Origin: a virus
Lineage: Duplodnaviria > Heunggongvirae > Uroviricota > Caudoviricetes
Virus record (IMG/VR): IMGVR_UViG_3300045988_151382
Reading direction: 5' to 3' (one strand)
DNA length: 48,925 bases
Shown here: in pieces, positions 1 to 48,925 of the stretch
How the letters are laid out: each line of letters begins with the position of its first letter
Numbering within the stretch: position 1 is the stretch's first letter
Program-made: the position numbers and the translations under genes
The notes under the pieces: generated by a model
What the model was told of the DNA's origin: nothing
The model's input: only the letters and a program-made list of their open reading frames with translations
Database searches by the model: none

Positions 1-836
1 AAAGCTGATTTATCCTGGATATCTGCACCGTTCTGATTTTTCGCCAGACGTGAATTTGCGTTGTCATTTGCTGCCTTGACCGCTTTTGGCGTTGCCGCCT
101 GCGTTTCAGACGTACTGTTAGTGGCACTACTGAGCTGAACTATCCCTTTTTGTGCCGTGGTGGCATTCTGGGCGGTATATTTTCCGTCAGCCAGGTCATA
201 TGCAGCCTTAACAGCCTTAGGCGTCGCTGCGAGCTTTTCAGACGTGCTATTGGTGGCATTACTGAGTTGAACAATGCCTTTTGATGTTAAAGTTGCATCA
301 GGATGATTACGTGATTGCTCATGTTTTACAATAGCTTGCTTAAGCCGCTTTGCTGAAACAGCCAGGGAATCATCTGTACCTGCATCAATTTCTTGTTCAT
401 TAGCAAATCTTGCTACTCCAACAACAGTTTCGGTTGCGGGAGGGTTAATAAACTCAACATCACCAAATGTAATGTTTTTAGTATCAAGATTTTTAATTGC
501 TATATCACTTGATATTAAAGCAATTGTAGAAGATGCTTTATTTATTATTACTTGTTCTTGCGAGTATACAGCAAACAATGTTCCTTTATTTGTATACAAA
601 CCTATTGTATGGACAACATACTCATCTTTACTATCATCCTTCGCAGTTACATGAATGGTATCAGGAGAAACGACTTTGCCTCCTATTGTGGTAAGTCGCT
701 TTATTTCATCTGTTATTTTTGTTTGTGTGGTTGATGTGGCATAATATCTACTACCTAAACCAACAGAAACGATCTCAACTTTATTTGTTCCAGTCTTGTT
801 GGCATTAACCAGCGCCTTACGCCCGGCGTCAGTCAT
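1..836 (-). CDS. Tail fiber protein, N-terminal portion; ORF starts at ATG 836 and continues across the circular junction into 46847..48836
   Basis: Hand translation from ATG at 836 gives MTDAGRKALVNANKTG... with two diverged copies of the tail-fiber repeat GIVQLS-ATNSTSE-AATPKAVKAA; no stop before position 1; frame matches the ORF ending at 46847. Confidence 0.75.
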   Translation of the reverse strand, partial: MTDAGRKALVNANKTGTNKVEIVSVGLGSRYYATSTTQTKITDEIKRLTTIGGKVVSPDTIHVTAKDDSKDEYVVHTIGLYTNKGTLFAVYSQEQVIINKASSTIALISSDIAIKNLDTKNITFGDVEFINPPATETVVGVARFANEQEIDAGTDDSLAVSAKRLKQAIVKHEQSRNHPDATLTSKGIVQLSNATNSTSEKLAATPKAVKAAYDLADGKYTAQNATTAQKGIVQLSSATNSTSETQAATPKAVKAANDNANSRLAKNQNGADIQDKSA

Positions 837-887
837 CGTAAATAATAATTTACTCACGCTTAATTCCTTGGATTAACAAATCGCAAA

Positions 888-1469
888 TTAGCACTCACCA
901 ATTAATCGTACATAAGACACAGGCTGGAAAGCACCGACAATACCAACACCACCTGAAACATTGGTTGCTTGCGAAAATGTAAATAGTGTTCTTGCCGACT
1001 TTGCACTCTTGATACTTCTTAACGTATCCTCCAACATCTCTTTCGAAGGAACAGCACCATCAAAAGAGTTAATCGAAGCAACAATTGAGGCTGTATATGG
1101 TTCGCCAGGTGGTGATGTTTCAAACCATTCTGTTATGTTTACCTCTCCACCCAAGCTATTTACTACATCTTCAACCGCTGCCCTTGTACCCTTTATTCGC
1201 TTTGTTCGTATTATTGATTTAAAAACAGAACGCTTTAACAATACAGGCCAACTATCCCTCCATGTATCAGCATTCCATTGCCAAGCTAAATGATCGAGAA
1301 CAACTGAGTCCAGGTTATCAACAACGCTATATATTTCTGTCTTATATATTAAATTGTTAATTGCTTGTAGTTCATCATCAATAGCTTTCGACATAGCTAT
1401 CACGTTGGGATCGCTAGCTAAGTTAGGAGGTAAAACATCCAACAAGCTAACATTAAAGATATCAGCCAT
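888..1469 (-). CDS. Tail/baseplate protein, P2 gpI-like
   Basis: 193 aa ORF; position between baseplate J-like and tail fiber genes; N-terminal LLDVLPPN motif typical of gpI family. Confidence 0.6.
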   Translation of the reverse strand: MADIFNVSLLDVLPPNLASDPNVIAMSKAIDDELQAINNLIYKTEIYSVVDNLDSVVLDHLAWQWNADTWRDSWPVLLKRSVFKSIIRTKRIKGTRAAVEDVVNSLGGEVNITEWFETSPPGEPYTASIVASINSFDGAVPSKEMLEDTLRSIKSAKSARTLFTFSQATNVSGGVGIVGAFQPVSYVRLIGEC

Positions 1470-2586
1470 CCTCTAACCCCGCATACTGGCAATTTATATT
1501 TCTCTCTCTGGCGACCTGTGTCTCTCCAATCACAGTAAAAACAGGACTTGATATTTCTAATCTTTTAGCCCCAGCATTTTTTAAACGTTGAATAATTTCA
1601 TCTGGATTTATATCTCTTCCCATAACCGAACGTTGCCATTGTTTATACTCATCAATAGCTTTCTCAACCTCACTTTGAATTAAAGTTGTTCTGTTTTTGT
1701 CCGATGAGTTAATCCAGTATTTAATTATTATATCGTATTCAATGCTCTCTGGTTTCTTAACAAGAACTTTATCTGTGAATGGTCGAATATTAGTTGCAGA
1801 GAGAACGCTATTTATCTGCTCTAATAGTTCATTAGAAGGTATATCTCCGTTCTCTAACAAAGAACGGATTTCTACAATTCCGGGCGATGGTGTATATACA
1901 TTCACATCTTTTATATTCTGATTGGCTGTTCTTGTCCAATATTTATAAGAATCCTCCGGCCCTGCTGTAGACAGTTTTTCCGGCGACAGTTTTATTCTTT
2001 CAGCATAATTATCATCTGACTCCGTATCAGCACCAGAATTAGATGTTGTTACATTCCTTACGCTGGAAACATACGGCAACGGAGTCACCAACTCATTTAT
2101 TTGCCCTGGTAAAAAGCCATTCCCAGATAAACCAGGTATAACAGCATATCCTGAGACTGTACCAACTGTTTTCCCAGCAGGTATTTCCAACAAAATATCT
2201 GTTTGGAAAATAACACCATTTCCAGTTGAAACTTGAGTGCCAGCAGGTATTGTATATATCCCCGATAATTTTGTTGACAGATTAAACTCAAATGTAGTCA
2301 AGGCAGATTGAGCTTCCAGCCTAGGCGTATCCGTCAGATAGCCTATATGGTCGAGATATTCACCTTCACCATATGTAAGAAGGTTTTGTTTTGCAGAAAA
2401 ATCGATAGCTTTTCTTTGCTGTATAATAATCTCACACAATGATAAGATGAATAATCTACGTGGATCAGCAGGTGCTAATGTTTCACCTGTTATACTCTCA
2501 AAAGCCCTGATTGAACGAGTTGTTATATCAGTCGGGTTAGAATCTGCGAAAGTAATATCTGGCAAACCACCACGCGGCAACGTCAT
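1462..2586 (-). CDS. Baseplate protein J-like
   Basis: 374 aa ORF; size and gene order W-J-I-fiber as in P2/Mu baseplate modules. Confidence 0.65.
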   Translation of the reverse strand: MTLPRGGLPDITFADSNPTDITTRSIRAFESITGETLAPADPRRLFILSLCEIIIQQRKAIDFSAKQNLLTYGEGEYLDHIGYLTDTPRLEAQSALTTFEFNLSTKLSGIYTIPAGTQVSTGNGVIFQTDILLEIPAGKTVGTVSGYAVIPGLSGNGFLPGQINELVTPLPYVSSVRNVTTSNSGADTESDDNYAERIKLSPEKLSTAGPEDSYKYWTRTANQNIKDVNVYTPSPGIVEIRSLLENGDIPSNELLEQINSVLSATNIRPFTDKVLVKKPESIEYDIIIKYWINSSDKNRTTLIQSEVEKAIDEYKQWQRSVMGRDINPDEIIQRLKNAGAKRLEISSPVFTVIGETQVARERNINCQYAGLEDG

Positions 2587-2903
2587 TCTCTAACTCCTAT
2601 CACAAGTTTTGGCCTAATAAAACCATCAGAAACGTCCGTTCTTTCAAAAGTAACAGAATGGATAATCGCTCTAGGCTCAAACTCACTAATTTTTTGAATT
2701 ATTTCTCGTGTTGCTGTAGCAATAAAAATTGGACTAGGGCTATCAACAAGACTTGAATTAATTCCTAATTTTCTGGCATATGGTACAGTGCCAATTTGAG
2801 TATTAATAATAGTAGAGACATTTTGCAAAACTTCTTCTACAACTGTTTTGGGCGACCAATCAATCGAGTAAGAAGGTGATGATATGGTAAACGTATTATT
2901 CAT
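2583..2903 (-). CDS. Baseplate protein W (gp25-like)
   Basis: 106 aa ORF immediately upstream of J-like gene with 4-nt overlap; size and position typical. Confidence 0.6.
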   Translation of the reverse strand: MNNTFTISSPSYSIDWSPKTVVEEVLQNVSTIINTQIGTVPYARKLGINSSLVDSPSPIFIATATREIIQKISEFEPRAIIHSVTFERTDVSDGFIRPKLVIGVRE

Positions 2904-3367
2904 AATAATTTACCTAACGCACTTCTAGTTTTTGACTCTATATTGCCAGCAATATCAACTAATGCTTCTTTCAGAGAGGTCTGTCCGACTTCCTGTAATT
3001 TAATGCCGACGATAATCACTCGTGGATTCCCAGTTGGACCGAAATAAGTCCATGATTCCTCTATATCTGTAATTATAAAATTACCAAAATACTGAATACC
3101 AATTACAACAGGATTTACTTCCTGAATTGATTGCATTGTCCTAAGTAATGAAAGCGCAGCCAATGGAACAATGCCAAGTGTTGTATCCAACCGCATATTA
3201 AAACTAACTTCATCCAGATCTGGACCTATATCCTCCAGAACAGGTTTAAGCCCAATAACATCATGGCGCGCTACACGACGCTTTGACGTCCTTTTAAAAT
3301 TGTTGAACGTATTCACCACTATTGATGAGGCAACAAAAGGCATTGTACCAAGCATACCCACAATCAT
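2900..3367 (-). CDS. Baseplate-associated protein, unassigned
   Basis: 155 aa ORF translationally coupled between V-like and W-like genes. Confidence 0.4.
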   Translation of the reverse strand: MIVGMLGTMPFVASSIVVNTFNNFKRTSKRRVARHDVIGLKPVLEDIGPDLDEVSFNMRLDTTLGIVPLAALSLLRTMQSIQEVNPVVIGIQYFGNFIITDIEESWTYFGPTGNPRVIIVGIKLQEVGQTSLKEALVDIAGNIESKTRSALGKLL

Positions 3368-3984
3368 GCCTGAGCCTCCGTTGTCGGAGCGTATTCCCCC
3401 TGAGCTGTGTGATGGTGGCCTTTAGATTTAATCCCATCAACATCTATATCACCACCAACAACCTTAACATTCCCAGAAATTGTAGCTGCAACACCTCCAG
3501 CAGAAGATCCTTTCATTCCACCTTTGAAGGTTAGTAATCCTTCAACTGTAGCATTTCCGGTAATGATGGTTTCTGGAGCATCAATAGTTACGGTTCCTGT
3601 AGCCTTAATGGTTACATCTCCGACAGCATCAACAAGGAGTAAATTAGATTCTCTGTCTATCTCAATACGAGTTCCGTTATTAAATCTAATGACGCGTTTA
3701 TTAACAGTATTAGATGGCGGCTTCTGTGTTTCATCATAAAAACTACCAAGAATAAAACCTTGTTGCGGCCCCGCGGGATGAAAGATACACAAAACTTGCT
3801 CACCAATATCTGGCATCCAGTAATCAGCATTCTTATCTGTATTTTTCACAATAACTGATAACTTTGCCGAAGTGACGTTATCCTGATCATCGAAAGTAAC
3901 TCTTGCTGTAACATCACCATCATCAATATCAGAAACAACGCCAACTCTTATAGTCTGACGTAATAATGTTTCTAAATCATTCAT
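3364..3984 (-). CDS. Baseplate spike/hub protein V-like
   Basis: 206 aa ORF; OB-fold-like N-terminus and beta-rich C-terminus with GG-repeats; position typical of gpV. Confidence 0.55.
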   Translation of the reverse strand: MNDLETLLRQTIRVGVVSDIDDGDVTARVTFDDQDNVTSAKLSVIVKNTDKNADYWMPDIGEQVLCIFHPAGPQQGFILGSFYDETQKPPSNTVNKRVIRFNNGTRIEIDRESNLLLVDAVGDVTIKATGTVTIDAPETIITGNATVEGLLTFKGGMKGSSAGGVAATISGNVKVVGGDIDVDGIKSKGHHHTAQGEYAPTTEAQA

Positions 3985-3986
3985 AA

Positions 3987-4988
3987 TTAATACCCATTAA
4001 TTACTCTTCGGACATCAATCGAGGTGGTATAACCACTAGTCCCAATTGAATGCACAGCTTTCGATATAAGATATTTTCCAGAAAATGAACCGAATCCCTC
4101 CAGATTTATAGTTACACCAGCTACCAATCTGGTGTCTCCAACCAATACTAAAGATCCGGTATTTTGATATCTATTTTTAAGCCGCAAAGCAGCCTTTGCC
4201 TTACGTTTTGCTTCATCTAAATTAGCTACCAGTTTTCTTATCTTAAGATTCGACCCTTCTTCTACGGATGGATCTACCCAAGTATACGAAAGCGACTTTC
4301 TTTTTTTAGGTACGCGATATTTGCACGTGCAACTTTTATACAAATCTGTAGATTGTGTGCTAAAGCTATATCTGATTATCTCATCAATACCTAACGTAAG
4401 CGTAGCGATAGGATCTTTTTGCTCAAACATCTCTTGAGCAAATATTATTAATTGGCTATCAGTGACCTTTAACGACAACCCTTCATCCTGGCAAAGTCGA
4501 TGGAGAAATTTTAAATCGCTTTCCTCCATTTGATCTTCACGCGCATAATATGGATTACTATCACCATCAATAAGAAACAACAGTTCAAGGTTAGCTAATT
4601 TAGCTATAGAAGTTGCTATATCTTTAAGAGTTGTTTTTTCCCATGCATTACTTTTTAAATCACGTCTAATGCCTGATGAAACAGGAACAGAAACAGCAGT
4701 TACCTCAACCACAGAAGGTGGTCCAGAGCAAGTTATGCCATCTACCTGGAATTTCCCGCACTCAAGGACGATTTGATTTATAGGCTTAAAGCTCAAATCA
4801 ATAAAATCACCCTTTTTAGGTGTCCAGTCTCCAGACCATTTCCCATCATCATTTTTTAATATAATAGAAATATCATCGACCTGACCATCTTCATTATCTG
4901 TATAAGACATTGACAAAACATCAGGTGACATATGAGCGGTAATATTTACATTCTGATATATAACATCAAAAAGCGTTTTACGTAACAC
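3987..4988 (-). CDS. Tail protein D-like (late control D family)
   Basis: 333 aa ORF directly downstream of tape measure and X-like gene, as in P2 T-U/X-D order. Confidence 0.55.
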   Translation of the reverse strand: MLRKTLFDVIYQNVNITAHMSPDVLSMSYTDNEDGQVDDISIILKNDDGKWSGDWTPKKGDFIDLSFKPINQIVLECGKFQVDGITCSGPPSVVEVTAVSVPVSSGIRRDLKSNAWEKTTLKDIATSIAKLANLELLFLIDGDSNPYYAREDQMEESDLKFLHRLCQDEGLSLKVTDSQLIIFAQEMFEQKDPIATLTLGIDEIIRYSFSTQSTDLYKSCTCKYRVPKKRKSLSYTWVDPSVEEGSNLKIRKLVANLDEAKRKAKAALRLKNRYQNTGSLVLVGDTRLVAGVTINLEGFGSFSGKYLISKAVHSIGTSGYTTSIDVRRVINGY

Positions 4989-5196
4989 TATTGCGTCTCC
5001 ACGGAGGAAAATTGTTTACTGATATTGGCATAACCGGAGCATCAGGAACTTTAAGAATAATCCCCGCAGAAAAAAGCACCGTAAAGCGGTGCTCAGTATT
5101 AGCATCAATAAGAAGATAAGACAGGTACTCATTACCATACAACTTTAAAGCGATACTATCCCATGAGTCCCCTTGAACCGTTCTATAATCATCCAA
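4978..5196 (-). CDS. Tail protein X-like with LysM-like motif
   Basis: 72 aa ORF, motif DSWDSIALKLYG resembles LysM; located just after tape measure gene. Confidence 0.5.
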   Translation of the reverse strand: MDDYRTVQGDSWDSIALKLYGNEYLSYLLIDANTEHRFTVLFSAGIILKVPDAPVMPISVNNFPPWRRNSVT

Positions 5197-7981
5197 AACT
5201 TAATCTCCGTTGTTGGAACATATGAGCACTCAATTTCTTCTCAAAATCAGAATATCCCGCATCTAATGCTCTTTTAGCTGCCGCCTCAGTTTCCTTTGGT
5301 GAACCAGCCGGAAGATTGATTACAGGTGAATAGGTTATTCCACCAGTCACAGCGTTAACGTTCTGGCGAGGTCCAGAAGTCCCGGCGGCAGATATCCCGT
5401 GAGGTGATAAATTTGATTGCCCGAACTTGCTTGCTATTGCATTCTGTAAGCTGTTATTCCTGCTAACACCTGATGCCAGAGTAGTCATTATTGCACCACC
5501 TGACTTTGTTAGCTGTGAGAATGGACCTTTTTTCGCGTCAGAGAACGGTAAATACTCACGTACAGAAGAAAAAACGCCTTTCACTTCATTAATTAAAGCA
5601 TTTGCTTTTGATTTTATCCCAGTGATTAACGTCTCAATTATTTTTGCGCCTGACTCACTCCAGTTTATTCCAGATAAATAAGTCGTTACAGATTGGAATG
5701 CTCTTATAAAGAGTCCAACTGGTGAAAAACGCATAAAAACAGATACCAGTGTATCTATGATTTTCTTTCCTGTTTCGCTCCAGTTAATGCCAGAAAGGTA
5801 ATTTGTTGTAATTTTAAATGCTTTAATTAAGAACGGAAGCGGAGACATCCATTTAAAAGCACTAATTAATGTACTGTAAATTCTTACACCTGCCGAACTC
5901 CAGTTTATGTTGGAAAGATAATCCCATGCTTTACCAAACATAGATATAATCCATCCATTGAGGTCAAAGTTTAAGATAAAGTTTTTTATAGCCTCAAATG
6001 ATTTAACTGTATATTCCTTAACAGAAGGCCAAACTCTGACAGCATAATCTCTGATCTTATCCCAATTCTGATAGAGCAATATTCCTGCGGCAACCAGCGC
6101 AGATATAGCCATCTGAATCCACCCGAAGGGTGTTAGCTTTGTCGCTACAGATAAAGCCAGCATAGCTACCCTACACGCTATAACCACACTTTTCATGGTT
6201 AGAAACGCACCTGCCGCCATCACTATCTGAGACACAAAATTGGGGTTGTTAGCTACAAATTCACTAATTTTTGTAATCAGCGGAACCAAAACACTAAGCG
6301 CGGCATTCAAAGCAGGTTGCAAGGCCTGACCAAAACTTAATGATGCATTGCTAGCCTGAATACGTAATTGTTTCAATCGCTCCGCATTATCTTTCGTTAT
6401 GTTGGCAAAATCGCGGTCAATAACAGCACTTCCAGCTCCAAGAGATGTTGCTTTGATTCTCTGGTATTCCTTCCAGTTTTGAATCATCGGACGAACAAAG
6501 TTCTGAACCTGCATATCGCCAAATAGTTCACCAAGTAACTTCTGATCTCCGTTCTTAGTCATTTTCATGACAGAATGCATTGCAGCTTCGAATGGATTCT
6601 TCCCTTTTTTCTGCGCTGTTGTAACAATTTTATATAAATCTACACCGAAATTTTTCTTTGCTTTTTTTAGTGTTTCAGGGGAAAGTATTTTTGCCAAAAA
6701 GTTGTTCATATTATTAGCAGCCTCATCCGAAGTTGCAGCCCCCTTGCGAGCTATCTGCAAAGCTGCACCCATCGTCGCGGCTGCTTCTTTACCTCCCATT
6801 TTTAATGCCTGGAACTGAGCACCAAGCACAGGAAGATTTTTGGCCATATCTTTAAATTCAAAGTTCCCCTCTTTCCCTGCCTGAACCAGAATCCCCATTG
6901 CAGACTTCATTTGAGATGGATCAATCTTCAATGAGTCACTTAATGTAAATGATGCTTTCGAGACATCGAGGATATCAGAGCCAGTAGCTGTAGCTGTTCG
7001 CCCAATAGTTAGTAGATTCGCCTGAGCCTCTTTATAATCCTGCCCAGCAGCGACGAGAAAACCCTGAGCGGCCTGAATATCAGATGCAAACTGGTTGGTA
7101 GCCGTTCCGGTAACAAGCATCGCCTGCCCCATCGCCTGAACTTCTTCCGGCTTCATATCTGCCGTAAGACCAATCATTTTGTTTTCACGATTGAAATTTG
7201 CTGCATTGTTAGCAGCAGCAAATGCACCAGCCGCTACAGCACCAGTTTGTAATCCTGACCTTACAAGTTGACTCTTTGCCTCACCAAGATGCTCTCGCTT
7301 CAATTCACGCTGCCTTTCCAACGCGCGGTTTAACTCCTCCTGAGCACGTTTTACTGCAAGAACATTTTTCCGTGCTTCAGCCAACGCATTTTTATAGCTG
7401 TTAATTTTATCAATACGTTGTTTTTCTAATGCCCGGTTAAGTTCCTCCTGCTGTTTTTTCACTTGCTGAACATTTGCTCTGGCTAAAGCCAAAGCCGTTC
7501 TGTAGCGGTTAACCTGCTCAACGCTACGGGCCTGAGCCTCACGATTACGATCAATGCTGGCTTTAAGCTCTTTCTCTCTTGAGGCCAAAGCTCTGGCAGA
7601 TGTATCAGCTCCCTGATAGGCAGACTTTAAAGCGGCCAGTTCTTCACGCTGAGAACGTAGTGATGCTCGTAAATTCGATGAATGTGTTTTTGCCTTCTCA
7701 AAGTCACGAAGCATCGCTCTGGTTGGATTGGCCGTGTTTTTTATTTGCTTCTGTAACTCTTCAACGCGAGCGGCAGCTTTATGATATTCGAGGGCAGTCT
7801 GTCCAACCTTTACTTTTACAGATTGTAGCTTTTGAATTTCCCCATGTTCTTTCGTTAATCCAGCAAGCTCGGCATTTAATTTAGCAACAGCCTGATTAGC
7901 TGTAGTAAAACTTTTGGGGAGAGAGGCGGCAACTTTGCCGCCAATTTCAAAAGCCAGCTTAAAGTTCTTATTGCTGGCCAT
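5189..7981 (-). CDS. Tail tape measure protein
   Basis: 930 aa ORF, N-terminal coiled-coil rich in A/K/E/Q, multiple hydrophobic segments, C-terminal region; position after chaperone pair. Confidence 0.8.
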   Translation of the reverse strand: MASNKNFKLAFEIGGKVAASLPKSFTTANQAVAKLNAELAGLTKEHGEIQKLQSVKVKVGQTALEYHKAAARVEELQKQIKNTANPTRAMLRDFEKAKTHSSNLRASLRSQREELAALKSAYQGADTSARALASREKELKASIDRNREAQARSVEQVNRYRTALALARANVQQVKKQQEELNRALEKQRIDKINSYKNALAEARKNVLAVKRAQEELNRALERQRELKREHLGEAKSQLVRSGLQTGAVAAGAFAAANNAANFNRENKMIGLTADMKPEEVQAMGQAMLVTGTATNQFASDIQAAQGFLVAAGQDYKEAQANLLTIGRTATATGSDILDVSKASFTLSDSLKIDPSQMKSAMGILVQAGKEGNFEFKDMAKNLPVLGAQFQALKMGGKEAAATMGAALQIARKGAATSDEAANNMNNFLAKILSPETLKKAKKNFGVDLYKIVTTAQKKGKNPFEAAMHSVMKMTKNGDQKLLGELFGDMQVQNFVRPMIQNWKEYQRIKATSLGAGSAVIDRDFANITKDNAERLKQLRIQASNASLSFGQALQPALNAALSVLVPLITKISEFVANNPNFVSQIVMAAGAFLTMKSVVIACRVAMLALSVATKLTPFGWIQMAISALVAAGILLYQNWDKIRDYAVRVWPSVKEYTVKSFEAIKNFILNFDLNGWIISMFGKAWDYLSNINWSSAGVRIYSTLISAFKWMSPLPFLIKAFKITTNYLSGINWSETGKKIIDTLVSVFMRFSPVGLFIRAFQSVTTYLSGINWSESGAKIIETLITGIKSKANALINEVKGVFSSVREYLPFSDAKKGPFSQLTKSGGAIMTTLASGVSRNNSLQNAIASKFGQSNLSPHGISAAGTSGPRQNVNAVTGGITYSPVINLPAGSPKETEAAAKRALDAGYSDFEKKLSAHMFQQRRLSFG

Positions 7982-7986
7982 TAGTA

Positions 7987-8169
7987 TTAATCCTCATTAA
8001 ACACGTCAATCCATGCGACGATTCGCCTCAACCGAAGCGAAAGCCAGTAGGATATAGGTGTTGATTGAGATGATTGAGATAGAGAACTCGCGGCCCTCAT
8101 TATTTGCTTATCAATAGGTTTTTGCTCATCAAAACCTACGAGAGCAAAAAATTCTGTACCTTTTGACAA
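7987..8169 (-). CDS. Tail assembly chaperone frameshift extension (E-prime-like)
   Basis: 60 aa ORF overlapping the 3-prime end of 8136..8417 in the -1 frame; slippery heptamer present in the overlap. Confidence 0.5.
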   Translation of the reverse strand: MSKGTEFFALVGFDEQKPIDKQIMRAASSLSQSSQSTPISYWLSLRLRRIVAWIDVFNED

Positions 8170-8417
8170 ACTTTAACAAAGTCTTTCGCTGGTAATCCAT
8201 TCAGATACTCTATTGGACGACCAATACAGCGAGCAGCCAAGGCTGCATGGACTTTATTATCAAGTGATGTTTGAACTGAAACATGCCCTTGAGATTGCAG
8301 TAAGTCCGATACCTCTAAAATATCACTGCCTTTTAGGTTGTCTAAATCAAGGTTGAGTTCAGTCACTGGCTCAAAGTCTTCAAAACGATATTCTTTACTT
8401 AATTTAACGGTTTCCAT
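8136..8417 (-). CDS. Tail assembly chaperone (gpE-like)
   Basis: 93 aa acidic ORF between tube and tape measure genes; ends with codons AAT TTT TTG CTC TCG TAG. Confidence 0.6.
   Translation of the reverse strand: METVKLSKEYRFEDFEPVTELNLDLDNLKGSDILEVSDLLQSQGHVSVQTSLDNKVHAALAARCIGRPIEYLNGLPAKDFVKVCQKVQNFLLS
8143..8151 (-). other. Candidate programmed -1 ribosomal frameshift site (TTTTTTG slippery heptamer)
   Basis: Minus-strand sequence GAATTTTTTGCTC at the end of the chaperone ORF, same heptamer class as P2 E/E-prime. Confidence 0.5.
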
Positions 8418-8426
8418 TTTTTCACC

Positions 8427-8948: not shown

Positions 8949-8964
8949 AGCAACCTCCTATTAT

Positions 8965-38083: not shown

Positions 38084-38093
38084 ATTCAACCAT

Positions 38094-38115: not shown

Positions 38116-38121
38116 TAATCG

Positions 38122-39000: not shown

Positions 39001-39192
39001 ATGACAAACCTACCCCATGACTATTACGTCAACCTCGTAAAGATCCTTCTCAAGAAAGCCTCATACGCCGATAAATTCCGCCTGGCTGAAATCATCGAGC
39101 GCGAAGCTATGCGCATCGCCAGCAACGATAACGCTGTTTCTGTCGCAAAAATCTCCCTCGTAACCAAAGTAGTTATGGGAGGTGCAAAATGA
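39001..39192 (+). CDS. Small protein translationally coupled to antirepressor
   Basis: 63 aa ORF whose stop overlaps the ant ATG (ATGA). Confidence 0.4.
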   Translation: MTNLPHDYYVNLVKILLKKASYADKFRLAEIIEREAMRIASNDNAVSVAKISLVTKVVMGGAK

Positions 39193-41602: not shown

Positions 41603-41983
41603 TTACTTAACGAGGAATAAAAATGGTTTATTGTTCGGCGGTGTAATCGGAGCTGGCTCGCTTTTGCTCATGCGATCAGTGTACCAGGCCAGCTCCTTGT
41701 CAAAGTAAGCCTGATTAAAATAGGCAATGAATGTAGTTTCAAATCCATAACGACCGCTAATACGCAGCATCTGATTGCCGTTCTCTGTTTCCAGGTATAC
41801 CTGGGCACGTTCCTGATTCTCCTTCAGCCAGGTTAAAGCCTCATCGCACGAGGACACACGATACTCATCATCGTAGCCGTCATCGATGCGGCTTGAAGAA
41901 GAACGGCAAATCACGCCAACAGAACCAGCCAGGATAGTTTGAATTTTAAGGAAAGCGTTTTTGCGGATTTTAATCATGCTCAT
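41603..41983 (-). CDS. Hypothetical protein, first gene after promoter cassette copy 3
   Basis: 126 aa ORF. Confidence 0.4.
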   Translation of the reverse strand: MSMIKIRKNAFLKIQTILAGSVGVICRSSSSRIDDGYDDEYRVSSCDEALTWLKENQERAQVYLETENGNQMLRISGRYGFETTFIAYFNQAYFDKELAWYTDRMSKSEPAPITPPNNKPFLFLVK

Positions 41984-42096
41984 CGGGTTATCTCCGGTTT
42001 AACCAGGGCGGGTATCGCTCGGTTTCGGGCATAACACTAGGAAATATTTTCCCACCTGTAAAGCGCTTTTTATATAAATCTATAATTATATAATTC
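41984..42096 (-). promoter_or_regulatory. Conserved promoter-plus-leader cassette, copy 3
   Basis: Same architecture as the copies at 24442..24553 and 32944..33060. Confidence 0.55.
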
Positions 42097-42104
42097 CATG
42101 AGCA

Positions 42105-42130
42105 CAAAAAAGCCCCTTTGCAACAGGGGC
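42105..42130 (-). terminator. Rho-independent terminator after the toxin-antitoxin pair (minus strand)
   Basis: Stem GCCCCT/AGGGGC followed by TTTTTTGT on the minus strand, 17 nt after the antitoxin stop. Confidence 0.55.
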
Positions 42131-42146: not shown

Positions 42147-42446
42147 TCAGATGTTAAACGCTATTCGTTTTCCTGTGGGAAGCTCAACATCCAGGCTTAA
42201 TTTGCCTCCCATAGCTTCAACGTAACGCTTTAATGTCGCCAGCTTTAAATCATTTCCGCGCTGCTCCAGCTTTGTTACTGCTGGCTGGCTTATACCCATC
42301 GCCTCAGCAACCTGCTTTTGTGATAACTGGAGTTCTTCACGCATCATCTGCAAGCCGACCTCAAGAATCATCTCATCTGCCATTTCTTTAATTCGCGCCT
42401 GGCTTTCCGGTGAACGGCTGGCAATCACCTCATCTAATGTTCTCAT
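42147..42446 (-). CDS. HigA-like XRE-family antitoxin
   Basis: 99 aa; HTH LSQKQVAEAMGISQPAVTKLE; directly downstream of toxin-like gene with ATG/stop overlap. Confidence 0.6.
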   Translation of the reverse strand: MRTLDEVIASRSPESQARIKEMADEMILEVGLQMMREELQLSQKQVAEAMGISQPAVTKLEQRGNDLKLATLKRYVEAMGGKLSLDVELPTGKRIAFNI

Positions 42447-42799
42447 TACTTGCTCTCCAGTGTGTTCAGATGTGCTGCAAACTCATCCTCAGCTATACGC
42501 ACCAGTTTTTTATAAAACCGCTTATCGTTACTTTTGTCTCCTGCACAAAGAACGATAGCCCGGCGAATCGGATCGAACGCATAAAAGGCTCTTATCGGAC
42601 GGCCAGAAAACTGAACGCGAAGCTCTTTCATATTTTTGTACCGAGAACCTTTTACGGTATCGGCATATGGCCTGGGTAACTCAGGTCCGTAAACCTGTAG
42701 CTTTTTCAAATCAGCCAAAACCTTTTCCTGAAGAGCGTCTTCTTGCTCATTTAGCCAGTCGTCAAATCGCTGGCTAAAAAGTACCGTCCACATGCTCAA
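42446..42799 (-). CDS. HigB-like (RelE-fold) toxin
   Basis: 117 aa; toxin-first arrangement characteristic of HigBA modules. Confidence 0.5.
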   Translation of the reverse strand: MSMWTVLFSQRFDDWLNEQEDALQEKVLADLKKLQVYGPELPRPYADTVKGSRYKNMKELRVQFSGRPIRAFYAFDPIRRAIVLCAGDKSNDKRFYKKLVRIAEDEFAAHLNTLESK

Positions 42800-43037
42800 T
42801 CCTATAACCTGTAGTTTATATCACTAACTATATAACCTGTGGGTTATAATTTCAAGAAAAACGGGGCCATTTAACATAATGGACGTTATCGGCACCACCG
42901 GATCACCGTTCATTGTCGGATCTAAAAAATCCGCTCAAAAGATCATGTTTTCCTGGGCGTTTTCCACCGTTTTTTATGTTGCTTATTTGTTAATGAAATC
43001 TCGTTTTCAGTTTCGCCTCATTTTCGACACGAAAGCC

Positions 43038-43328
43038 CTATTTTTGTGACTTTACTCCTGGCATATGGACTTCCCAGCGACGAATCCCCATAGCTGCGCA
43101 AAAATCAGCCACATAATTCAATCCCGCCCATTCGCGGATACCACCACGGGCTTTTTCAATGAAAACGGCAATCCCTTTTTTATTGAGAGCAAAAAGCCGC
43201 CAGCTTTTTGTCACTTCGTCCTGGGTAGCCACAACACAAGTGAAAGCTCCCATGCGATACAGGTCCAAGAACTCTTTGCGTGTTTTGCGTACAAGTTCCA
43301 TAACAAGCCTCATATTTGCATGTTTCAA
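43038..43328 (-). CDS. Hypothetical protein
   Basis: 96 aa ORF, coupled to upstream gene. Confidence 0.35.
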   Translation of the reverse strand: MKHANMRLVMELVRKTRKEFLDLYRMGAFTCVVATQDEVTKSWRLFALNKKGIAVFIEKARGGIREWAGLNYVADFCAAMGIRRWEVHMPGVKSQK

Positions 43329-43624
43329 ACATCTGTTTTGTTATCAATGAAGATTAACCCTAACCCAGCGAAGTAACACAGCAGCGCCCAGGCTGCATAC
43401 GGAATGCTGGATCTGGATGTGGACTCCTTTAACATCTGCCAGTTGCGAACATTGCGACTATCTTTTAAGCCTAGTTTTTTGGCCAACTGCGAGCCGCTCA
43501 TTCCGGTCAGGCCAATGACTGCCCGAACTTCTCCACATGTAGGAGATTCCCATTCATCCGCTTTTTTTAAACAAGCCGGATTCAACATTTTTAAAACAGT
43601 ATCTTTATCCATAACCATCTCCAT
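43325..43624 (-). CDS. Putative HTH protein with C-terminal transmembrane helix
   Basis: 99 aa; HTH-like GMSGSQLAKKLG and hydrophobic AAWALLCYFAGLGLIF. Confidence 0.4.
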   Translation of the reverse strand: MEMVMDKDTVLKMLNPACLKKADEWESPTCGEVRAVIGLTGMSGSQLAKKLGLKDSRNVRNWQMLKESTSRSSIPYAAWALLCYFAGLGLIFIDNKTDV

Positions 43625-43979
43625 TTATTATATCTACGATGGTAGGAAATCTTTTCCTATGTGGCAATAGAAATTTACTACATTGCGTATAAGACAAGTT
43701 TTCTATGTCTAATAGAAAATGATGTTTCTTACGTTTTGTCGCGTTCTGATTGCTACTGTGTGCGTATTTATCGACGTTTATTGATAAGGTCCGTCCCTTC
43801 CTCCTGCAAAGCCCGGCCGTAGGCCTTATTTCGGCCTTATATAAATTGATTTTGTATAGTTCGAAACGTGCCGTTTCGAAAAGGATGATCAGGCTGCTCC
43901 ATGCCTCCGGCAAGTGCCGGAGGAGGTATATTTGAGCGTAGCGACTCGAACCGGCGCGAGCTTTAGCTCGCTGCAAGGG

Positions 43980-44255
43980 CGAACATATTCACAGGCAAAG
44001 CCTGCGTAAGTTAAATAAAGAAAGTCTTAATAAAAGAAAGTGATTTTGCATTTATTTGTTTAGTGCATCTATTATAAAAAACCATTTGCATATACATATC
44101 AAAACTGTGGATAACTTTATTAGCCGATGCCTGTAAAGGCGATATTTTTGCTGTGTCCAGGTTTAGAGAAAATTAATTTAGACTATTTTTTGAACAGATA
44201 TTTTATTGCGACGTAGATAATCCTCCGGTAAAACCGGATTCATCATTCAGGTGGG
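43980..44255. other. Candidate plasmid replication origin region with consensus DnaA box
   Basis: AT-rich region immediately downstream of repA; TGTGGATAA (reverse complement TTATCCACA) at about 44106..44114. Confidence 0.5.
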
Positions 44256-45104
44256 TTAATGTTGGAGTGATTTCCAGGTCTTTCTTAGCCTGTTATAACG
44301 CTGCTCAACGAGGGATCGTAAATATGCAAGGTCAGCACCTGGATACATGCCATCAGCAAATTCCTGGCTAACCTCTCTAGTGATTTGATGACGAAGTTCG
44401 GCCTCTCCCTTTTCCCGGACAAGACGCGCAGCTCTCTCCGCTGCTTTCTGTTTTGCCTTTATCTCTCTGGCCGTCTTCCTCTGGCGCCATACATTCTCCA
44501 TCTGCTCCTGAATAACAATACGCTTATAATCAGCCTCCGTTATCGCTTTTTTAAGCCGTTCGCTATTCTTCGCATTGAAGTAATTAAGTTTCTGGCTAAC
44601 CGCACGTCTCCATGCTTGTTCAGTAATACCAACGGTTTCCAGCAGTTGATCACGAATCTCTATTTTCGCTGGCCAATACTGTTTATTCACCCGATCCCAG
44701 CGACGTTCATAATCAATAAAACCTAACGCTTTCAGTTGCGACAACGCCCTTGTACAGCGCGTTATAGACTTGTTCCCAGCTTCGGATACGGTAGACAGGC
44801 CGCAAAAATCAGCCAACGCCTCAGCACTAGCCAGAACCCGCTTAGAAATGATGTTTACATGGTGCAAAATCGCAGCGATCACAGCATTAATCGCCCGACG
44901 ACGATGCTCGTTTATCCGGCGCTTCCGCCCTGACGGTTGATTAACGTAGAACGCAACCTCACACGTAAGATCACGACCATTAATGCGCTGTAAAGCATCA
45001 GATAACACCAGCGGCAGCTTGTGCGTATGGTGCTTTGGAGGCTGGAACTCCGGCGACAAATTACAAACGTAAGCGGAACGTAGAGACGGCATTGGTCTAT
45101 CCAT
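44256..45104 (-). CDS. repA: Replication initiator RepA, IncFII RepA1-like
   Basis: Segment CGLSTVSEAGNKSITRCTRALSQLKALGFIDYE resembles recalled IncFII RepA1 block; start uncertain (ORF open to 45236, internal ATG at 45104). Confidence 0.65.
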   Translation of the reverse strand: MDRPMPSLRSAYVCNLSPEFQPPKHHTHKLPLVLSDALQRINGRDLTCEVAFYVNQPSGRKRRINEHRRRAINAVIAAILHHVNIISKRVLASAEALADFCGLSTVSEAGNKSITRCTRALSQLKALGFIDYERRWDRVNKQYWPAKIEIRDQLLETVGITEQAWRRAVSQKLNYFNAKNSERLKKAITEADYKRIVIQEQMENVWRQRKTAREIKAKQKAAERAARLVREKGEAELRHQITREVSQEFADGMYPGADLAYLRSLVEQRYNRLRKTWKSLQH

Positions 45105-45136
45105 ATGTTCGCTCTTGCGTCCACGGAAAACCAACG

Positions 45137-45229
45137 TATAATGGGAGTTGTCGAGGCGCCCATGGATTGTTGTTGTTGGTTTTCCGTGGATGTCGCAAGA
45201 AGCCCGCAGATTTATCTGCGGGCTTTTTG
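45137..45229 (+). ncRNA. CopA-like antisense RNA candidate opposite the repA leader
   Basis: TTGCGT-N16-TATAAT promoter, 15-bp inverted repeat CCACGGAAAACCAAC/GTTGGTTTTCCGTGG, then terminator GCCCGCAGA-TTTA-TCTGCGGGC-TTTTT. Confidence 0.5.
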
Positions 45230-45702
45230 TTTCCATATCTGGTCAGTTTCCAACCAGACACCCACAATCATAACCACGTTACGTGGTTTTAAGAGAACTC
45301 TACCACAACACTTTCGGTCATGCACGAAGTCTCTCACTGATCGAACGATAATCCACCAGTAAAAGGATCTAAATTGGATCTCGTTTTGCGAGCATCATAC
45401 TACTGGCCTAACTCCAGTCAATGATTCCCAGCCAGAAACCTGCGGTAAACTCATCGTTCAGCAATATGCTGTCCGGCTTCAAAGATAAGGTGACATCATC
45501 CCTTAACAGCGCGGCCAGTTCAGTTAAAGGGCTGTTCTGATTTAATGCTGGCCACTCATACCTGGTAATAAGTGGTCAGTCTTAACACTCACCATTTGAT
45601 TGCACCCGTGTTGACGATTTGTTACTGGATATCAGACACGCTGGATAGCCAGTAGAAACATACCATTAAAATTATTACAATAATTGGTCACATGATTATC
45701 TT

Positions 45703-46266
45703 ATGCTGAATAATAAAGATATGAATATTAATGAACTTAAAGACTGTATTCACTATGAAGTAATCGGTAGCGAGCGTCCTTTCTCCTGGCGAAAGGCAAT
45801 TGTTCGCGCAATAAAACATAGAAGGGTTCGTTATTTATTTTGGTGGCGCATAGCCAAATACCTTTTTGATAAAGGCGGATACTGTCGGAAGATTGCGGGA
45901 AAAATAGAACGTTTCATTCTTGATAAATATAATGTAACAGTCCCTTTAACTGTAAATATAGGGAAAGGCTTTGATATTTCTTATCTCAACAGTGTTGTTA
46001 TCGGTCACAAAGTAACAATCGGTGAAAATTGTTCAATTAAGCCCGGAGTAACTATTGGACTTCGCGGGGAATTTAATGATATGGATATTGTTATAGGGCA
46101 TAATGTGACCATTGGTTGTAATGCCACCATTCTTGGTGGCAAAGTGCGTATAGGAAACAATGTCACAATAGGTGCTCATGCATTGGTATTGCATGATATT
46201 CCTGATGATTCAACATTCATCACTAAATTTCAGTCTGAAGTTATCTGCTCGTCCTCCCGAACATAA
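45703..46266 (+). CDS. Hexapeptide-repeat (left-handed beta-helix) acyltransferase
   Basis: 187 aa; tandem hexapeptide repeats [21 protein letters not shown]...[34 protein letters not shown]; AT-rich codon usage. Confidence 0.7.
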
Positions 46267-46847
46267 CCCTGATTCATCAGCTCTGGCCATACGATATCCG
46301 GAGCTGTACTGGTGTCAATTCTACTCACTAATACTCTGTATTTTCTCCAGGAATCCAGTTGTGAATTTTCCTCGTTTGTTGCTATTTCAAGATTAACTGC
46401 ATCCTGCAGAATTGCGATGTTATCTGTTGCTTCCTGGATCAACCTTGCCTTTTTCTCTTCCGCTTCCCGTATCCGAAACAGTTTTTCTGCTTCCTCATCA
46501 TTCACCCAGGATACGCCGTCCCACTTCTGATACTCCCCTGCTGGCGACAACCAGGTGACATTCTCTGGTAGCGGTCCGAGTTCAGAAATAAACAATGCGT
46601 CCCCCGACGCCACGTCATAGACCGTTTTACCACGATGGTCTTCAACAATATTCCACGATTCATTTTCACTGTTAAAAACTGCCACAAAGCCAGCAGGAAT
46701 TTCCGGTGGGGCGATATCTGTAGAATTAGCTGGCAGCCCTGTATGAGGTGGAATATATGCGTCACCTTCACCAATAAACTCATTAGTTCCGGCCAGCAGG
46801 TTATAAATTTTTACGGTACGTGATTGTTCACTCATTCTGAATGCCAT
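46230..46847 (-). CDS. Tail fiber assembly protein (Tfa)
   Basis: 205 aa; C-terminal [15 protein letters not shown]...WPE motif matches recalled Tfa consensus; immediately downstream of tail fiber gene. Confidence 0.8.
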
Positions 46848-48836
46848 TATGCAAGCCTCACAATATAATTAAATGCGATGTTTTTAACGGTGTTTTCCGC
46901 GTTACCAGCAGCGTTAACGGTGATGGTGTGTCCATGTGAACCAATCTTAACAGAGTGCGTATGAGCGCCAATACCAACAGTGTGTGCATGTGCCCCAGCA
47001 CTTGTAGCGGTACCTGATACTGAGTGGGTATGTGCGCCAGAAGAAGGCACAGTTCCATTCCCCACCACCGTGCCACTTGATGAACCATCCAGCCAGTCGA
47101 AATTCATACCGCCACTGTTTGGTCTCCTTAATGGAACGGTATGAGTATGTGCGCCAGCACTATTTGCAGTACCAGATACATTGTGGGTATGTGCACCTGT
47201 GTTATTCGTTGATTTAGTACCGTAATCAAACGACGATGTGGTTTTCGTACCCAAATCCGTACTGGATGCGCTGGCACTGTGGGTGTGCGATTTAATGCCA
47301 TCCTGTTCCTGAGACAATACGGCCCGACCACTGGCGGGTTTGCCCTTGATTGTCCAGCCGCGCATATCTGGAATAACACCAGAAGGATAGGCAATAGCCA
47401 GTTTCGGATATGCTGCCTTATCAAACGTCTGCCCCTGCATGATTGCATAACCTGCAGGTGGCGTATCTGATGGCCACGGCAGCGGAACACCTGGCGGAAA
47501 CGCTTCAATATTTGCCGAGCCGTCAAATTTTACGCCGTTAATTGTCCTTGCCGTTTTCAGCTTTGTTGCTGTAGCAGCATTGCCGGATAGTTCGCCTGAA
47601 AGACCACCGCTGAATGTCTGTTTCGCCATCCATGTCTGAGCTTCGTCGATAATTGGCACACGTCTTGTCGTGATCGTGCGGCTTCCCGGATTTCCTGAAA
47701 TGCGAACCATAAAAAAGCGGTAGTTGGCTTTACTTACAGTGCTGCGCCATACATGCATTGAGCGTCCCGAACCAGAATCATCACTCGGACCGACTGAGAT
47801 GTTTATCAGGTTGCCATCAATGACGCCCCAGTCCATACCGTCGGGAATATTGGTCATGTTATCAAGCCGAACGGTTATCAGACTGCCCGGCACAAAATCG
47901 TAGGTCTGCCAGTCCAGGCTGGTGAGCTTTGCCACAGCACCGCCGATACCCAGATTCAGGGGAAGTGAATACGAGGTGTAGACTTCCCGCCATTCGCTCC
48001 ATGAGCTGCCGGTAAAGACGCGCTCAAAGGTGCGGCCTTTAAGGGTTGTACCTGTTCCGGCAGTTGTATAACGCTGCCATACATTAACACCATCAAACCG
48101 CCTCAACACTTCCAGAATGCCGAGTACAGTCACGCCGTTTCCGTCCAGTACTGGACCGTTGGTCGCTTTACCTGTAACGCTGTAAATACCTGGTGAGGTT
48201 ACATCATTCAAATCACCTTCGTAATAACGACTCTCTGACTGATGACCGACTCTTAACCACGGTTCCCACTGCGGATTTGATGCATCCCAGCTTGCCGCAA
48301 GACAGCGGACATACATATTTCCACGGCGAGTGGTATAACGTTGCGTTCTTCCATAATTTCCGCCTTCGAGGATCTCAAGCATCCCCTGAGCAAAGCCGCC
48401 TTCCTCTGGATAATTGCGTTCATATGAAGCTATAGCTGAGCTACTGTTACGCCATAAACCAAGATGCTCAGCGGCTCCAAGCGTATTCAGGTCTATAGTC
48501 GTACTCAAAGGGCGGGTAGCAGATTGAGTGTGACGCCATACGCCCCACGGACCATCAGTGCCATTCCACTTATTGGCGAGTTTACGCATGTATACATTGC
48601 CGTCTCTCGTGGTAAAGCGTTGCGTACCTGCAAAATGGCCGGCAGCAAAAACCTCAAGCACACCGACAGCATTATCTTCCGGGAAATTTTTCTCCAGTGT
48701 TGCGTTGGTGGATGTTGCTTTAGACCAGATACCTGAATAAGCCTTAACAGGACCAAACGTATTCAGATCAGCATCAAGCGGCATTTCGCCATTGTTTTTC
48801 ATAAACGTCAGGCTGGTAACGCCAACATTGTCCAGA
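46847..48836 (-). CDS. Tail fiber protein, C-terminal portion (continuation of 1..836 across the circular junction)
   Basis: ORF track 46847..48802 is the internal-Met part; frame stays open upstream through 48836 and joins position 1; C-terminus has repeated GAHTH(N/S/T)V His-rich motifs. Confidence 0.75.
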
Positions 48837-48925
48837 AAAGCTGATTTATCCTGGATATCTGCACCGTTCTGATTTTTCGCCAGACGTGAATTTGCGTTGT
48901 CATTTGCTGCCTTGACCGCTTTTGG
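48837..48925. repeat. Terminal overlap: exact copy of window positions 1..89
   Basis: 89 identical bases at both window ends, coding frame preserved across the join. Confidence 0.85.

Follow-up and report, generated by a model that had tools for sequence, protein, structure and literature searches.

The phage-plasmid P1 carries Cre/lox, a RepA initiator with iterons, and the C1 repressor, and packages its DNA by the headful mechanism. In its immI region, C4 RNA masks a leader, and the antirepressor is produced only if that leader is translated. In N15 and phiKO2, the prophage repressor CB, which lacks the residues for self-cleavage, lowers repA transcription and copy number (PMC4997575). For the Enterobacteriaceae, the papers examined name only phage-plasmid groups of the P1, D6, N15, and SSU5 types (10.1101/2025.09.12.675607; PMC12977533). 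Here, we analyzed the whole 48,925-nucleotide stretch of the tailed-phage record IMGVR_UViG_3300045988_151382 (the window), which is very probably the complete, circularly closed assembly of a temperate myovirus kept in Escherichia coli as a low-copy plasmid and not integrated. At the level of sequence identity the element is already known, as a 99%-identity member of a family for which public databases contain many “plasmid” records and three records of Yersinia phages. No P1, D6, N15, or SSU5 record appeared among its whole-length DNA matches or the closest relatives of its large terminase, and its size, replicon, and tail type differ from those of the ten types tabulated in PMC12977533.

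The window resembles the immI region of P1 in having a C4 RNA followed by a small leader open reading frame (ORF) translationally coupled to an antirepressor. Unlike P1, it has no Cre/lox, its RepA belongs to the IncFII superfamily, packaging would be of the lambda cos type, the repressor is CI-like, and the genome is half the size. With N15 and phiKO2 it shares a lambda-like repressor, putative operators both at the switch and before repA, and an antirepressor locus as a second immunity region. It differs from them in being circular without a protelomerase, in a RepA unrelated in size and family, and in its contractile tail (siphovirus-type in N15 and phiKO2). The helix-turn-helix (HTH) is all that its repressor has in common with theirs, with 27% identity over 67 aa.

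Four records annotated only as plasmids represent the same element: pMS21199B (NZ_CP082049.1), pSCU-204-5 (NZ_CP053252.2), pEC488-4 (NZ_CP109878.1), and the 48.5-kb plasmid of ATCC 25922 (NZ_CP009073.1). pMS21199B is collinear with 99.7% of the circle at 99.1% identity and carries a different antirepressor allele (93% over 38093-39382, with a gap at 39383-39544). pSCU-204-5 covers 93% of the circle at 98.9% identity and lacks the Ead/Ea22 block at 27490-30349. Gene order and content are alike in the window, pMS21199B, pSCU-204-5, and pEC488-4. Three Yersinia phages, vB_YpM_39, 41, and 44 (OR545053-55; host Y. pestis EV76), are 98% identical in DNA to the window over 79% of its left half and have a large terminase 99.7% identical to that of the window, a 98%-identical RepA, and the same HigB/HigA plus ParA block. 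That these records name a plating host is indirect evidence that members of the family form particles.

The window begins and ends with the same 89 bases (1-89 and 48837-48925), as had been seen in a first-pass annotation made from the letters alone, and this is exactly the longest prefix of the window that is also a suffix. Words of 20, 30, 40, and 89 nucleotides taken from its start were found in the whole window solely at positions 1 and 48837. Such an overlap is the usual assembler remnant on a circular or circularly closed template, and once the redundant second copy is dropped, the circle ends at position 48836 and measures 48,836 bp. A minus-strand frame stays open across the junction for 953 codons, from 872 through position 1 to 48836 and on to a stop at 46847. 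Its first ATG, at 836, gives a tail-fiber product of 941 aa, in line with the roughly 940 codons proposed earlier. The 5' part of this gene (1-836) and its 3' part (46847-48836) together encode two Phage_fiber_2 repeats, a Collar domain, and Phage_fiber repeats (Pfam).

In pMS21199B, which is closed at 49,445 bp, window positions 43302-48836 and then 1-38102 align at adjoining plasmid coordinates (43912 and 43911). Both pMS21199B and pSCU-204-5 have a single unbroken tail-fiber coding sequence of 2,847 nt annotated at the junction, seven codons longer than the ATG-836 reading, a difference that we attribute to an upstream start within the same open frame. Since the 89-mer is unique and the junction is contiguous in a finished circular plasmid, a third tail-fiber repeat with other flanks, which the first-pass annotation had named as a possible refutation, is excluded, and its circular unit of about 48,836 bp cut within the tail-fiber gene stands. 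True direct terminal repeats exist in some phages and would look the same in a contig, but that the 89 bp are such a repeat of a linear virion chromosome is hardly credible, given that they lie in the middle of a coding sequence, that the terminase is of the lambda gpA type, that the finished circular plasmids are contiguous and hold a single copy there, and that the Yersinia phage records start near position 19691.

To characterize the gene content, 85 ORFs, including every six-frame ORF of at least 150 aa, were translated and scanned against Pfam. One co-oriented minus-strand array runs from 35473 down to 888 and then across the junction to 46230. The contractile tail and baseplate module (888-10428) comprises P2 I-like, baseplate J, gp25-like, gpU-like, baseplate V/spike, gpD-like hub, tape measure, chaperone, tube, and sheath genes. 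Pfam matches here were Tail_P2_I, Baseplate_J, Phage_P2_GpU, Phage_base_V, Phage_GPD, PhageMin_Tail, and Phage_tube, and the sheath is a 487-aa ORF that PGAP names “phage tail sheath family protein” in relatives. The head module (10428-16262, minus strand) holds neck and connector proteins, a major capsid protein E (Phage_cap_E, 3e-54), a decoration-like protein, a ClpP-type prohead protease (CLP_protease, 2e-31), a lambda-family portal (Phage_portal_2, 5e-100), and a DUF6148 protein. On the same strand follow the large terminase, of the lambda gpA type with ATPase and endonuclease domains (16274-18130; GpA_ATPase 7e-75, GpA_nuclease 2e-83), the small terminase (18136-18696; phrog_57, 7e-42), and a protein with a ParB/Srx-like N-terminal domain (18687-19277; ParB_N), which is the first gene after the presumed cos. 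The lysis cassette (25695-27301, minus strand) has two holins, a GH108 endolysin with a peptidoglycan-binding domain, and small ORFs that we read as spanin-like (Phage_holin_8, Phage_holin_3_7, Glyco_hydro_108, and PG_binding_3). The full virion (head, contractile tail, and lysis genes) claimed in the first pass is borne out by these Pfam and PHROG matches, together with the PGAP naming of the sheath, and the packaging genes are likewise present.

Lambda gpA-type terminases cut at cos, and the large terminase predicts packaging of this kind. We place cos within the non-coding stretch at 19278-19834 because the vB_YpM_39 record starts at about 19691 and that of XM1, a linear Vibrio phage, a short way before the ParB-like gene; the ParB-like, TerS, TerL order is also found at the left end of the XM1 record. 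As proof of the cos position the starts of the Yersinia records were rejected, being weak, with vB_YpM_44 starting ~100 nt from vB_YpM_39 and 41. On the other side of the stretch lie a homolog of a PHROG “minor tail protein,” a ParB_N-methyltransferase fusion, and a second ParB/Srx-like protein (19835-22567, minus strand; Pfam, PHROG, and PADLOC). In all, three ParB/Srx-like proteins (18687-19277, 20571-21950, and 21944-22567) flank the presumed cos region, one of them fused to an S-adenosylmethionine methyltransferase.

The ORFs for the sheath, tape measure, hub, capsid, portal, large terminase, and fiber assembly protein are as long as their counterparts in intact relatives and run without a break. 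Relatives such as pEC488-4, with IS5 in its tail-hub gene, NZ_CP173475.1, with IS1203 in its terminase, and shortened records of 31-39 kb might raise the suspicion of a domesticated or defective phage-plasmid that has lost the ability to form infectious particles. For the window we judge this rather unlikely, with its checked structural ORFs full-length and uninterrupted and its virion-gene half 98% identical over 79% to phages deposited with a plating host.

Among characterized phages, the nearest virion module is that of the Vibrio myophages X29, phi 2, Rostov 7, and vB_VpaM_XM1, with 62-65% identity in the large terminase. XM1 has the same gene order (ParB-like, TerS, TerL, adaptor, portal, Clp protease, decoration, capsid E, sheath, and on to the fiber) but differs in carrying two integrases and neither RepA nor a ParA partition block. 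Virion modules of one kind are thus combined with integrative lysogeny genes in one lineage and with plasmid genes here. A search with the large terminase among GTDB species representatives gave only three matches, of 57-58%, on metagenome-assembled contigs.

We then looked at how the element and its relatives are maintained. In the 85 ORFs there was no Phage_integrase, Resolvase, Recombinase, or rve match at E values up to 0.001, and the profile scan held no recombinase or transposase family, which confirms that no integrase is recognizable. PGAP annotation likewise lists no recombinase in pSCU-204-5 and pMS21199B, and only the transposase of the inserted IS5 in pEC488-4. The sheath-to-terminase segment was searched in 5,426 complete E. 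coli genomes (RefSeq), and the structural module was present in 72 of them (~1.3%) at 83 places, 82 of which were on plasmids. The listed module-bearing records were mostly of 46-57 kb, with a few shorter ones (31-39 kb) and one of 94 kb with two copies. In a wider collection of assemblies, the exact portal protein was listed in 7,927 blocks, for which the longest contig measured 20-50 kb in 5,770 and exceeded 200 kb in only 5. It is for the relatives only that an extrachromosomal state is documented in this way, by 82 of 83 places and a contig-length distribution that agrees with it; together with RepA and ParA and no integrase, these data uphold the earlier proposal of an extrachromosomal rather than an integrated prophage.

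The terminal overlap shows only that the template was circular or concatemeric, and the nearest large-terminase relatives, the Vibrio phages X29, phi 2, and XM1 (62-65%), carry integrase genes. One could therefore imagine a prophage of the usual integrating kind, captured in excised or replicating circular form, with induction as the source of its circularity. We regard it as very improbable: the ORFs scanned include no integrase, excisionase-type recombinase, or transposase, the element has RepA, ParA, two toxin loci, and a Xer site, and its relatives are separate circular replicons of ~47-57 kb in 82 of 83 places. Of two long contigs that were inspected at the partition region, the 265-kb UGFE01000007.1 holds at least two tandem copies of the element, and a 6.65-Mb record has scattered fragments of it among plasmid and chromosomal genes. 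NZ_CP032086.1, a 94,204-bp “plasmid” of ATCC 25922, has the element at two places. The tandem copies in UGFE01000007.1 and NZ_CP032086.1 are either assembly artifacts or real multimers or concatemers.

The replicon itself centers on a RepA initiator (44256-45236, minus strand) that falls within the IncFII Pfam superfamily (PF02387, 2e-42), with 145.7 bits against a cutoff of 22.9, and also matches NF040977 with 233 bits against a cutoff of 70. By contrast, its score for the canonical IncFII equivalog TIGR03474 is far too low (78.3 bits versus a cutoff of 446.9). The BLASTP check against IncFII RepA1 that had been suggested in the first pass, run on R100 RepA, gave 40% identity over only 97 aa (E = 1e-19), which does not make this a canonical IncFII initiator. 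Hence, given this partial match and the failed equivalog, the label “IncFII-like” is right at the superfamily level only. The start of repA is ambiguous: the long ORF encodes 326 aa, with the family domain starting only near residue 53, and alternative gene calls place the start internally, for products of 278-286 aa. The best promoter match upstream (45394-45421, minus strand; TTGACT-16-TATGAT) agrees with 10 of 12 consensus positions.

Opposite repA codons 1-40, on the plus strand, lies a candidate antisense control RNA (45117-45236) with a long hairpin, a GC-rich terminator hairpin, and a T-run. Its folding energy was -68.1 kcal/mol (z = -8.1), and 0 of 200 shuffles were equally stable. This hairpin-terminator layout is the architecture of an antisense copy-control RNA, whose expression we infer from the sequence, and the first ~44 repA codons, which it covers, may act as an in-frame leader. 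No match to the Rfam CopA family (RF00042) was obtained at E values up to 1 in 43300-45800. We found no copB-like gene or separate tap-like leader ORF upstream of repA among ORFs of at least 60 aa, the smallest size searched. The candidate origin (44020-44114, minus strand) has the sole perfect DnaA box of the element (44106-44114), ~145 nt downstream of the repA stop, followed by an AT-rich stretch. The element resembles the IncFII plasmids R1 and R100 in its PF02387 RepA, in a candidate antisense RNA opposite the 5' portion of the repA message, and in the DnaA box and AT-rich stretch downstream of repA; it departs from them in the failed equivalog, the missing CopA family match, and a leader in frame with repA. 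Of the earlier description as an IncFII-like RepA with antisense RNA and a DnaA box, the superfamily, the hairpin-terminator, and the DnaA box hold, while a canonical IncFII assignment and an Rfam CopA do not.

Partition genes are found on the same molecule as the replication gene. A small ParA ATPase of 217 aa (36926-37579, plus strand; Pfam CbiA/ParA/MipZ) also matched the NCBIfam ParA_partition model at 5e-22, below the model cutoff, and would be of type Ib when classed by size. Downstream of it is an 82-aa protein (37623-37871, plus strand) with a disordered N-terminal tail and two confident helices (residues 47-59 and 62-81; predicted local distance difference test [pLDDT] >90 with AlphaFold2). 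The model is compatible with a ParG-type ribbon-helix-helix protein; there was no Pfam match at E values up to 5 (ParG PF09274 included), no PDB sequence match, and no significant Foldseek match. In the ParF/ParG system of TP228, a small Walker ATPase precedes a protein of ~80 aa whose N-terminal tail is flexible and whose C-terminal half is helix-helix, with 8-bp-periodic arrays, and the window resembles it in all of these. It is unlike TP228 in having no ParG match, a different repeat unit, and arrays at five other promoters as well. Of the ParA/ParG-like partition proposed before, the ParA families and the small downstream protein are therefore present, with ParG a label that no profile or fold match backs.

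Two toxin loci accompany these genes. A HigB-like toxin (42446-42793; PF05973 Gp49, 9e-22) is followed by a HigA-like HTH antitoxin (42147-42446; HTH_3 and HTH_37) on the minus strand, in adjoining frames and with the toxin-first order of HigB/HigA type II systems. The HigBA-like addiction module of the first-pass annotation is thus correctly named, with a Gp49-family toxin upstream of an HTH antitoxin. The second locus is related to the type I toxin-antitoxin TimP/TimR (ryfA) of Salmonella and E. coli, of which chromosomal copies have been studied (PMC7667032). A full-length Rfam ryfA match (38094-38390, minus strand; 143 bits, gathering threshold 80) contains a 40-codon ORF (38122-38244; MKKYCMCIFIVVTGALFTPHGEGW...) with a hydrophobic, TimP-like N-terminus. 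On the opposite strand, complementarity, a promoter-like site (38534-38561), and a hairpin with a T-run (38644-38668) suggest that the neighboring segment at 38568-38668 is a TimR-like antitoxin small RNA: the 18-mer at 38568-38585 is identical in 17 of 18 positions to 38310-38327 and hence complementary to the ryfA RNA. The likeness to TimP/TimR extends to the full-length ryfA, the ~40-codon ORF, and a divergent adjoining small RNA candidate complementary to the 5' message, while, unlike the copies studied, this one lies on a phage-plasmid beside partition genes. It would be a second addiction module beside HigB/HigA.

Just upstream of higB, a dif/cer-like XerC-XerD site, GGTGCCGATAA-CGTCCA-TTATGTTAAAT (42869-42896, minus strand), has 11-bp arms and a 6-bp spacer and is the same in four relatives. 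Compared with the E. coli dif sequence, it has two mismatches, both in the XerC arm, and a perfect XerD arm. Dimer resolution is the standard reading of a Xer site on a plasmid, and host XerCD likely resolves dimers here, in an element without a recombinase of its own. Such host dependence would explain the lack of a Cre-like gene. A near-consensus 28-bp site with a 6-bp spacer might also allow XerCD integration at chromosomal dif, with switching between the plasmid and integrated states, and one place among the relatives lies on a record labeled chromosome. We think this quite unlikely: 8 of 8 higB contigs (including contigs of 5.17 Mb, 324 kb, and 143 kb) keep element genes on both sides, the 265-kb contig carries the element in tandem, the 6.65-Mb record is scrambled and mosaic, and the portal lies on a contig of >200 kb in only 5 of 7,927 blocks. 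None of the long contigs seen has its gene order broken at the dif-like site, so that there is no sign of Xer-mediated integration.

Immunity appears to be governed by a CI-like prophage repressor of 220 aa (35646-36308, plus strand), with an HTH (Pfam HTH_3, 5e-11) and a divergent CI-like C-terminal domain. It matches phrog_4 over its full length (4e-23) and phrog_6201, a “CI-like repressor” family, over residues 112-216, which supports a lambda-like CI domain. There was no Peptidase_S24 match at E values up to 5 and no PDB match, and a hand alignment, not reliable in itself, suggests that both members of the Ser/Lys self-cleavage pair are replaced. Divergently, an early leftward operon (27492-35473, minus strand) encodes a 164-aa first protein, a Ref nuclease, DUF1064 and DUF3560 proteins, Ead/Ea22 paralogs, and small ORFs (Pfam RecA_dep_nuc, DUF1064, DUF3560, and Ead_Ea22). 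For the 164-aa protein there was no Pfam or NCBIfam match, and the sole PHROG match is of unknown function; because it lacks a family match, the name “Cro” is a positional guess only. The CI/Cro-type switch described earlier thus keeps its divergent HTH repressor and clustered operators and loses its Cro, for which no family match exists.

The 172-bp switch region between repressor and early operon (35474-35645) has AACCAC-N5-GTGGTT palindromes at 35491, 35512, and 35593. Over the element, six sites with at most one mismatch were found versus 0.06 expected, the switch site at 35512 having two mismatches and lying outside the six. One of the six, at 4707 in the tail-hub gene, is probably there by chance. 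The palindrome search also placed a perfect copy between cI and the operon of a 124-aa gene and parA (36350-36366) and a copy at 38687-38703, upstream of the promoter of the antirepressor operon (TTGACA, 38727-38732). A further perfect repressor-type palindrome, AACCACGTTACGTGGTT, lies in the repA leader (45272-45288), 36 nt upstream of the ATG and beside the -10-like TATGAT, where we predict repressor binding; it is the same in four relatives. By analogy with N15 and phiKO2, this palindrome suggests that the prophage repressor also sets plasmid replication. A diverged RepA relative from an Enterobacter plasmid (35.6% identity) was rejected as a comparator for the palindrome, as it belongs to a resistance plasmid bearing a type IV secretion system and a relaxase, and no phage-plasmid.

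The second immunity arm is read from the plus strand. It comprises an isrK-family RNA (38762-38834; Rfam 67.7 bits, gathering threshold 50), a C4 antisense RNA of the P1/P7 immI type (38859-38947; 77.8 bits, gathering threshold 45), a 63-codon leader ORF (39001-39192; phrog_7886), and an antirepressor with ORF6N and Rha domains (39189-40457; ORF6N 1e-18, Phage_pRha 1e-11, and PHROG anti-repressor families). The stop of the leader overlaps the start of the antirepressor (ATGA). The C4 segment GUCAUUGUG, which aligns with the loop that the model leaves unpaired, is complementary to CACAAUGAC, a stretch covering the AUG at 39001, and a second C4 segment, GUUCCAA, is complementary to UUGGAAC at 38951 (9 nt and 7 nt, respectively). 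The region therefore has the C4 match, the complementarity to the leader start, and the coupled leader ORF of a P1-type immI, with a leader that none of the tests made here related to P1 icd. The first-pass annotation listed neither this isrK/C4-antirepressor arm nor the ryfA/TimP locus, the Xer site, the repA-leader palindrome, or the AT-rich arrays.

These arrays are built of 8-bp units. The motif TATAKAWTTATAKAA has 13 exact copies in the window versus 0.00 expected, every copy is intergenic, and relatives retain 12-14 copies. The repeats upstream of parA (36798-36910) are a candidate centromere/operator. Exact copies lie at 36807-36902, also between parA and the ParG-like gene (37596-37610), and in five other promoter regions (24528-24551, 25665-25687, 31829-31843, 33038-33052, and 42070-42084). 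At three places the array is part of a ~115-bp cassette, in which it is followed by a promoter-like TTTACA-17-TAnGGT, a conserved leader, and an ATG. The copies (all on the minus strand, with 89% mean column identity) precede unrelated genes and end at the ATG of an 89-aa gene (24436-24570), of the DUF3560 gene (32947-33085), and of a 126-aa gene (41978-42115). Rfam gave no match to the repeated leader cassette, and in the phage collection the cassette was found in the three Yersinia phages only. The 8-bp periodicity is in keeping with binding by a ribbon-helix-helix protein, and omega of pSM19035 and KorB of RK2 are at once centromere binders and global regulators. From this periodicity we hypothesize that the ParG-like protein may likewise be both a centromere binder and a global regulator, as omega and KorB are.

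Taken together, these features suggest how a plasmid-maintained myovirus might work. In lysogeny, the CI-like repressor would act on AACCAC-N5-GTGGTT operators at the switch, the parA operon, the antirepressor operon, and the repA leader. RepA would start replication at the DnaA-box/AT-rich region just downstream of repA, the antisense RNA over the first ~40 codons would limit RepA synthesis, and ParA with the ParG-like protein would segregate the copies through the 8-bp AT-rich arrays. Host XerCD would resolve dimers at the dif-like site, and the two toxin systems would kill cells that lose the plasmid. Induction would most likely proceed through the antirepressor, coupled to the 63-codon leader whose start codon the C4 RNA would mask, as in P1 immI. 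Upon derepression, a single long leftward transcription unit (early, lysis, terminase, head, and tail genes) would be expressed, and the DNA would be cut at cos upstream of the terminase genes and then packaged.

Several observations weigh against this interpretation. By itself, the 89-bp overlap could also come from a circular replicative form or a concatemer, and one of the 83 places was on a record labeled chromosome, which was not identified among the listed records. Operator binding, expression of the antisense RNA, the origin, the cos position, and Xer activity are all deduced from sequence. Conservation of the operator and Xer sites adds little, since it extends only to relatives whose overall identity is 98-99%. 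The C-terminal half of the repressor has pLDDT values of <50 in a single-sequence AlphaFold model, and a LexA box search gave one site, in a coding region far from the immunity genes, and none near the antirepressor operon. With no LexA box nearby, induction driven by the antirepressor is the preferred, though unproven, route.

A broader claim, joining three parts, is possible but doubtful: that the CI-like repressor directly gates, by way of the repA-leader palindrome, an IncFII-type replicon used for both maintenance and lytic growth, that the ParG-like protein is, besides a centromere binder, a global regulator at no fewer than seven promoter regions, and that the family is a fifth widespread enterobacterial phage-plasmid group, absent from present typing schemes. 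If it were true, lysogeny and plasmid maintenance would be one circuit, with the same replicon serving low-copy upkeep and derepressed lytic replication. The regulatory layout of putative operators (at the switch, the partition and antirepressor operons, and repA), C4-gated antirepressor, and AT-rich arrays offers a compact system in which to study the coupling of the phage and plasmid programs.

The family seems to be common but under-described. No description of it as a phage-plasmid family, and none of the family accessions, was found in the literature searched, the Yersinia phages included. The name pSLy3 was considered for the family and rejected, since pSLy3 belongs to the SSU5 supergroup, whose types are of ~100 kb. 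Typing and surveillance tools built on P1, D6, N15, and SSU5 lists would probably miss or mislabel these elements, and the window offers a clean, complete reference copy of a family present in ~1.3% of finished E. coli genomes. Some relatives carry cargo: on one contig, a CTX-M-type beta-lactamase gene and a DDE transposase gene are inserted in the antirepressor region, and on another, a SMODS plus S_4TM gene pair sits beside the lysis genes. Such insertions imply that cargo on this backbone can be spread through infection.

Between the lysis genes and an MT-A70 family DNA methyltransferase gene (24554-25141, minus strand; MT-A70 7e-22, PADLOC MTase_II) sits a tRNA with anticodon CAT (25450-25525, minus strand; ARAGORN, and 67 bits with Rfam), called tRNA-Met by ARAGORN and annotated as tRNA-Ile in pEC488-4. 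PADLOC on ten accessory proteins gave methyltransferase matches only, the MT-A70 protein being without a restriction partner.

Beyond the tail-fiber gene, a lambda gpK-type tail-fiber assembly protein (46230-46847, minus strand) matched Caudo_TAP (E = 9e-39). Window positions 1-138 of the fiber gene have 90-92% DNA identity to gene H of P2-like phages (L-413C, P24B2, and others), to which the rest of the element is unrelated, so that a mosaic joint lies within this gene. The locus between the fiber chaperone and repA is variable. In the window and many plasmids, it is occupied by a hexapeptide-repeat acetyltransferase (45703-46266, plus strand; Pfam Hexapep) that is EpsC/CysE/WcaB-like by NCBIfam matches below the cutoffs, whereas the Yersinia phages and other relatives have at the same spot a Hin-type invertase with an inverted alternative fiber/chaperone set. 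The acetyltransferase could modify the surface polysaccharide of the lysogen.

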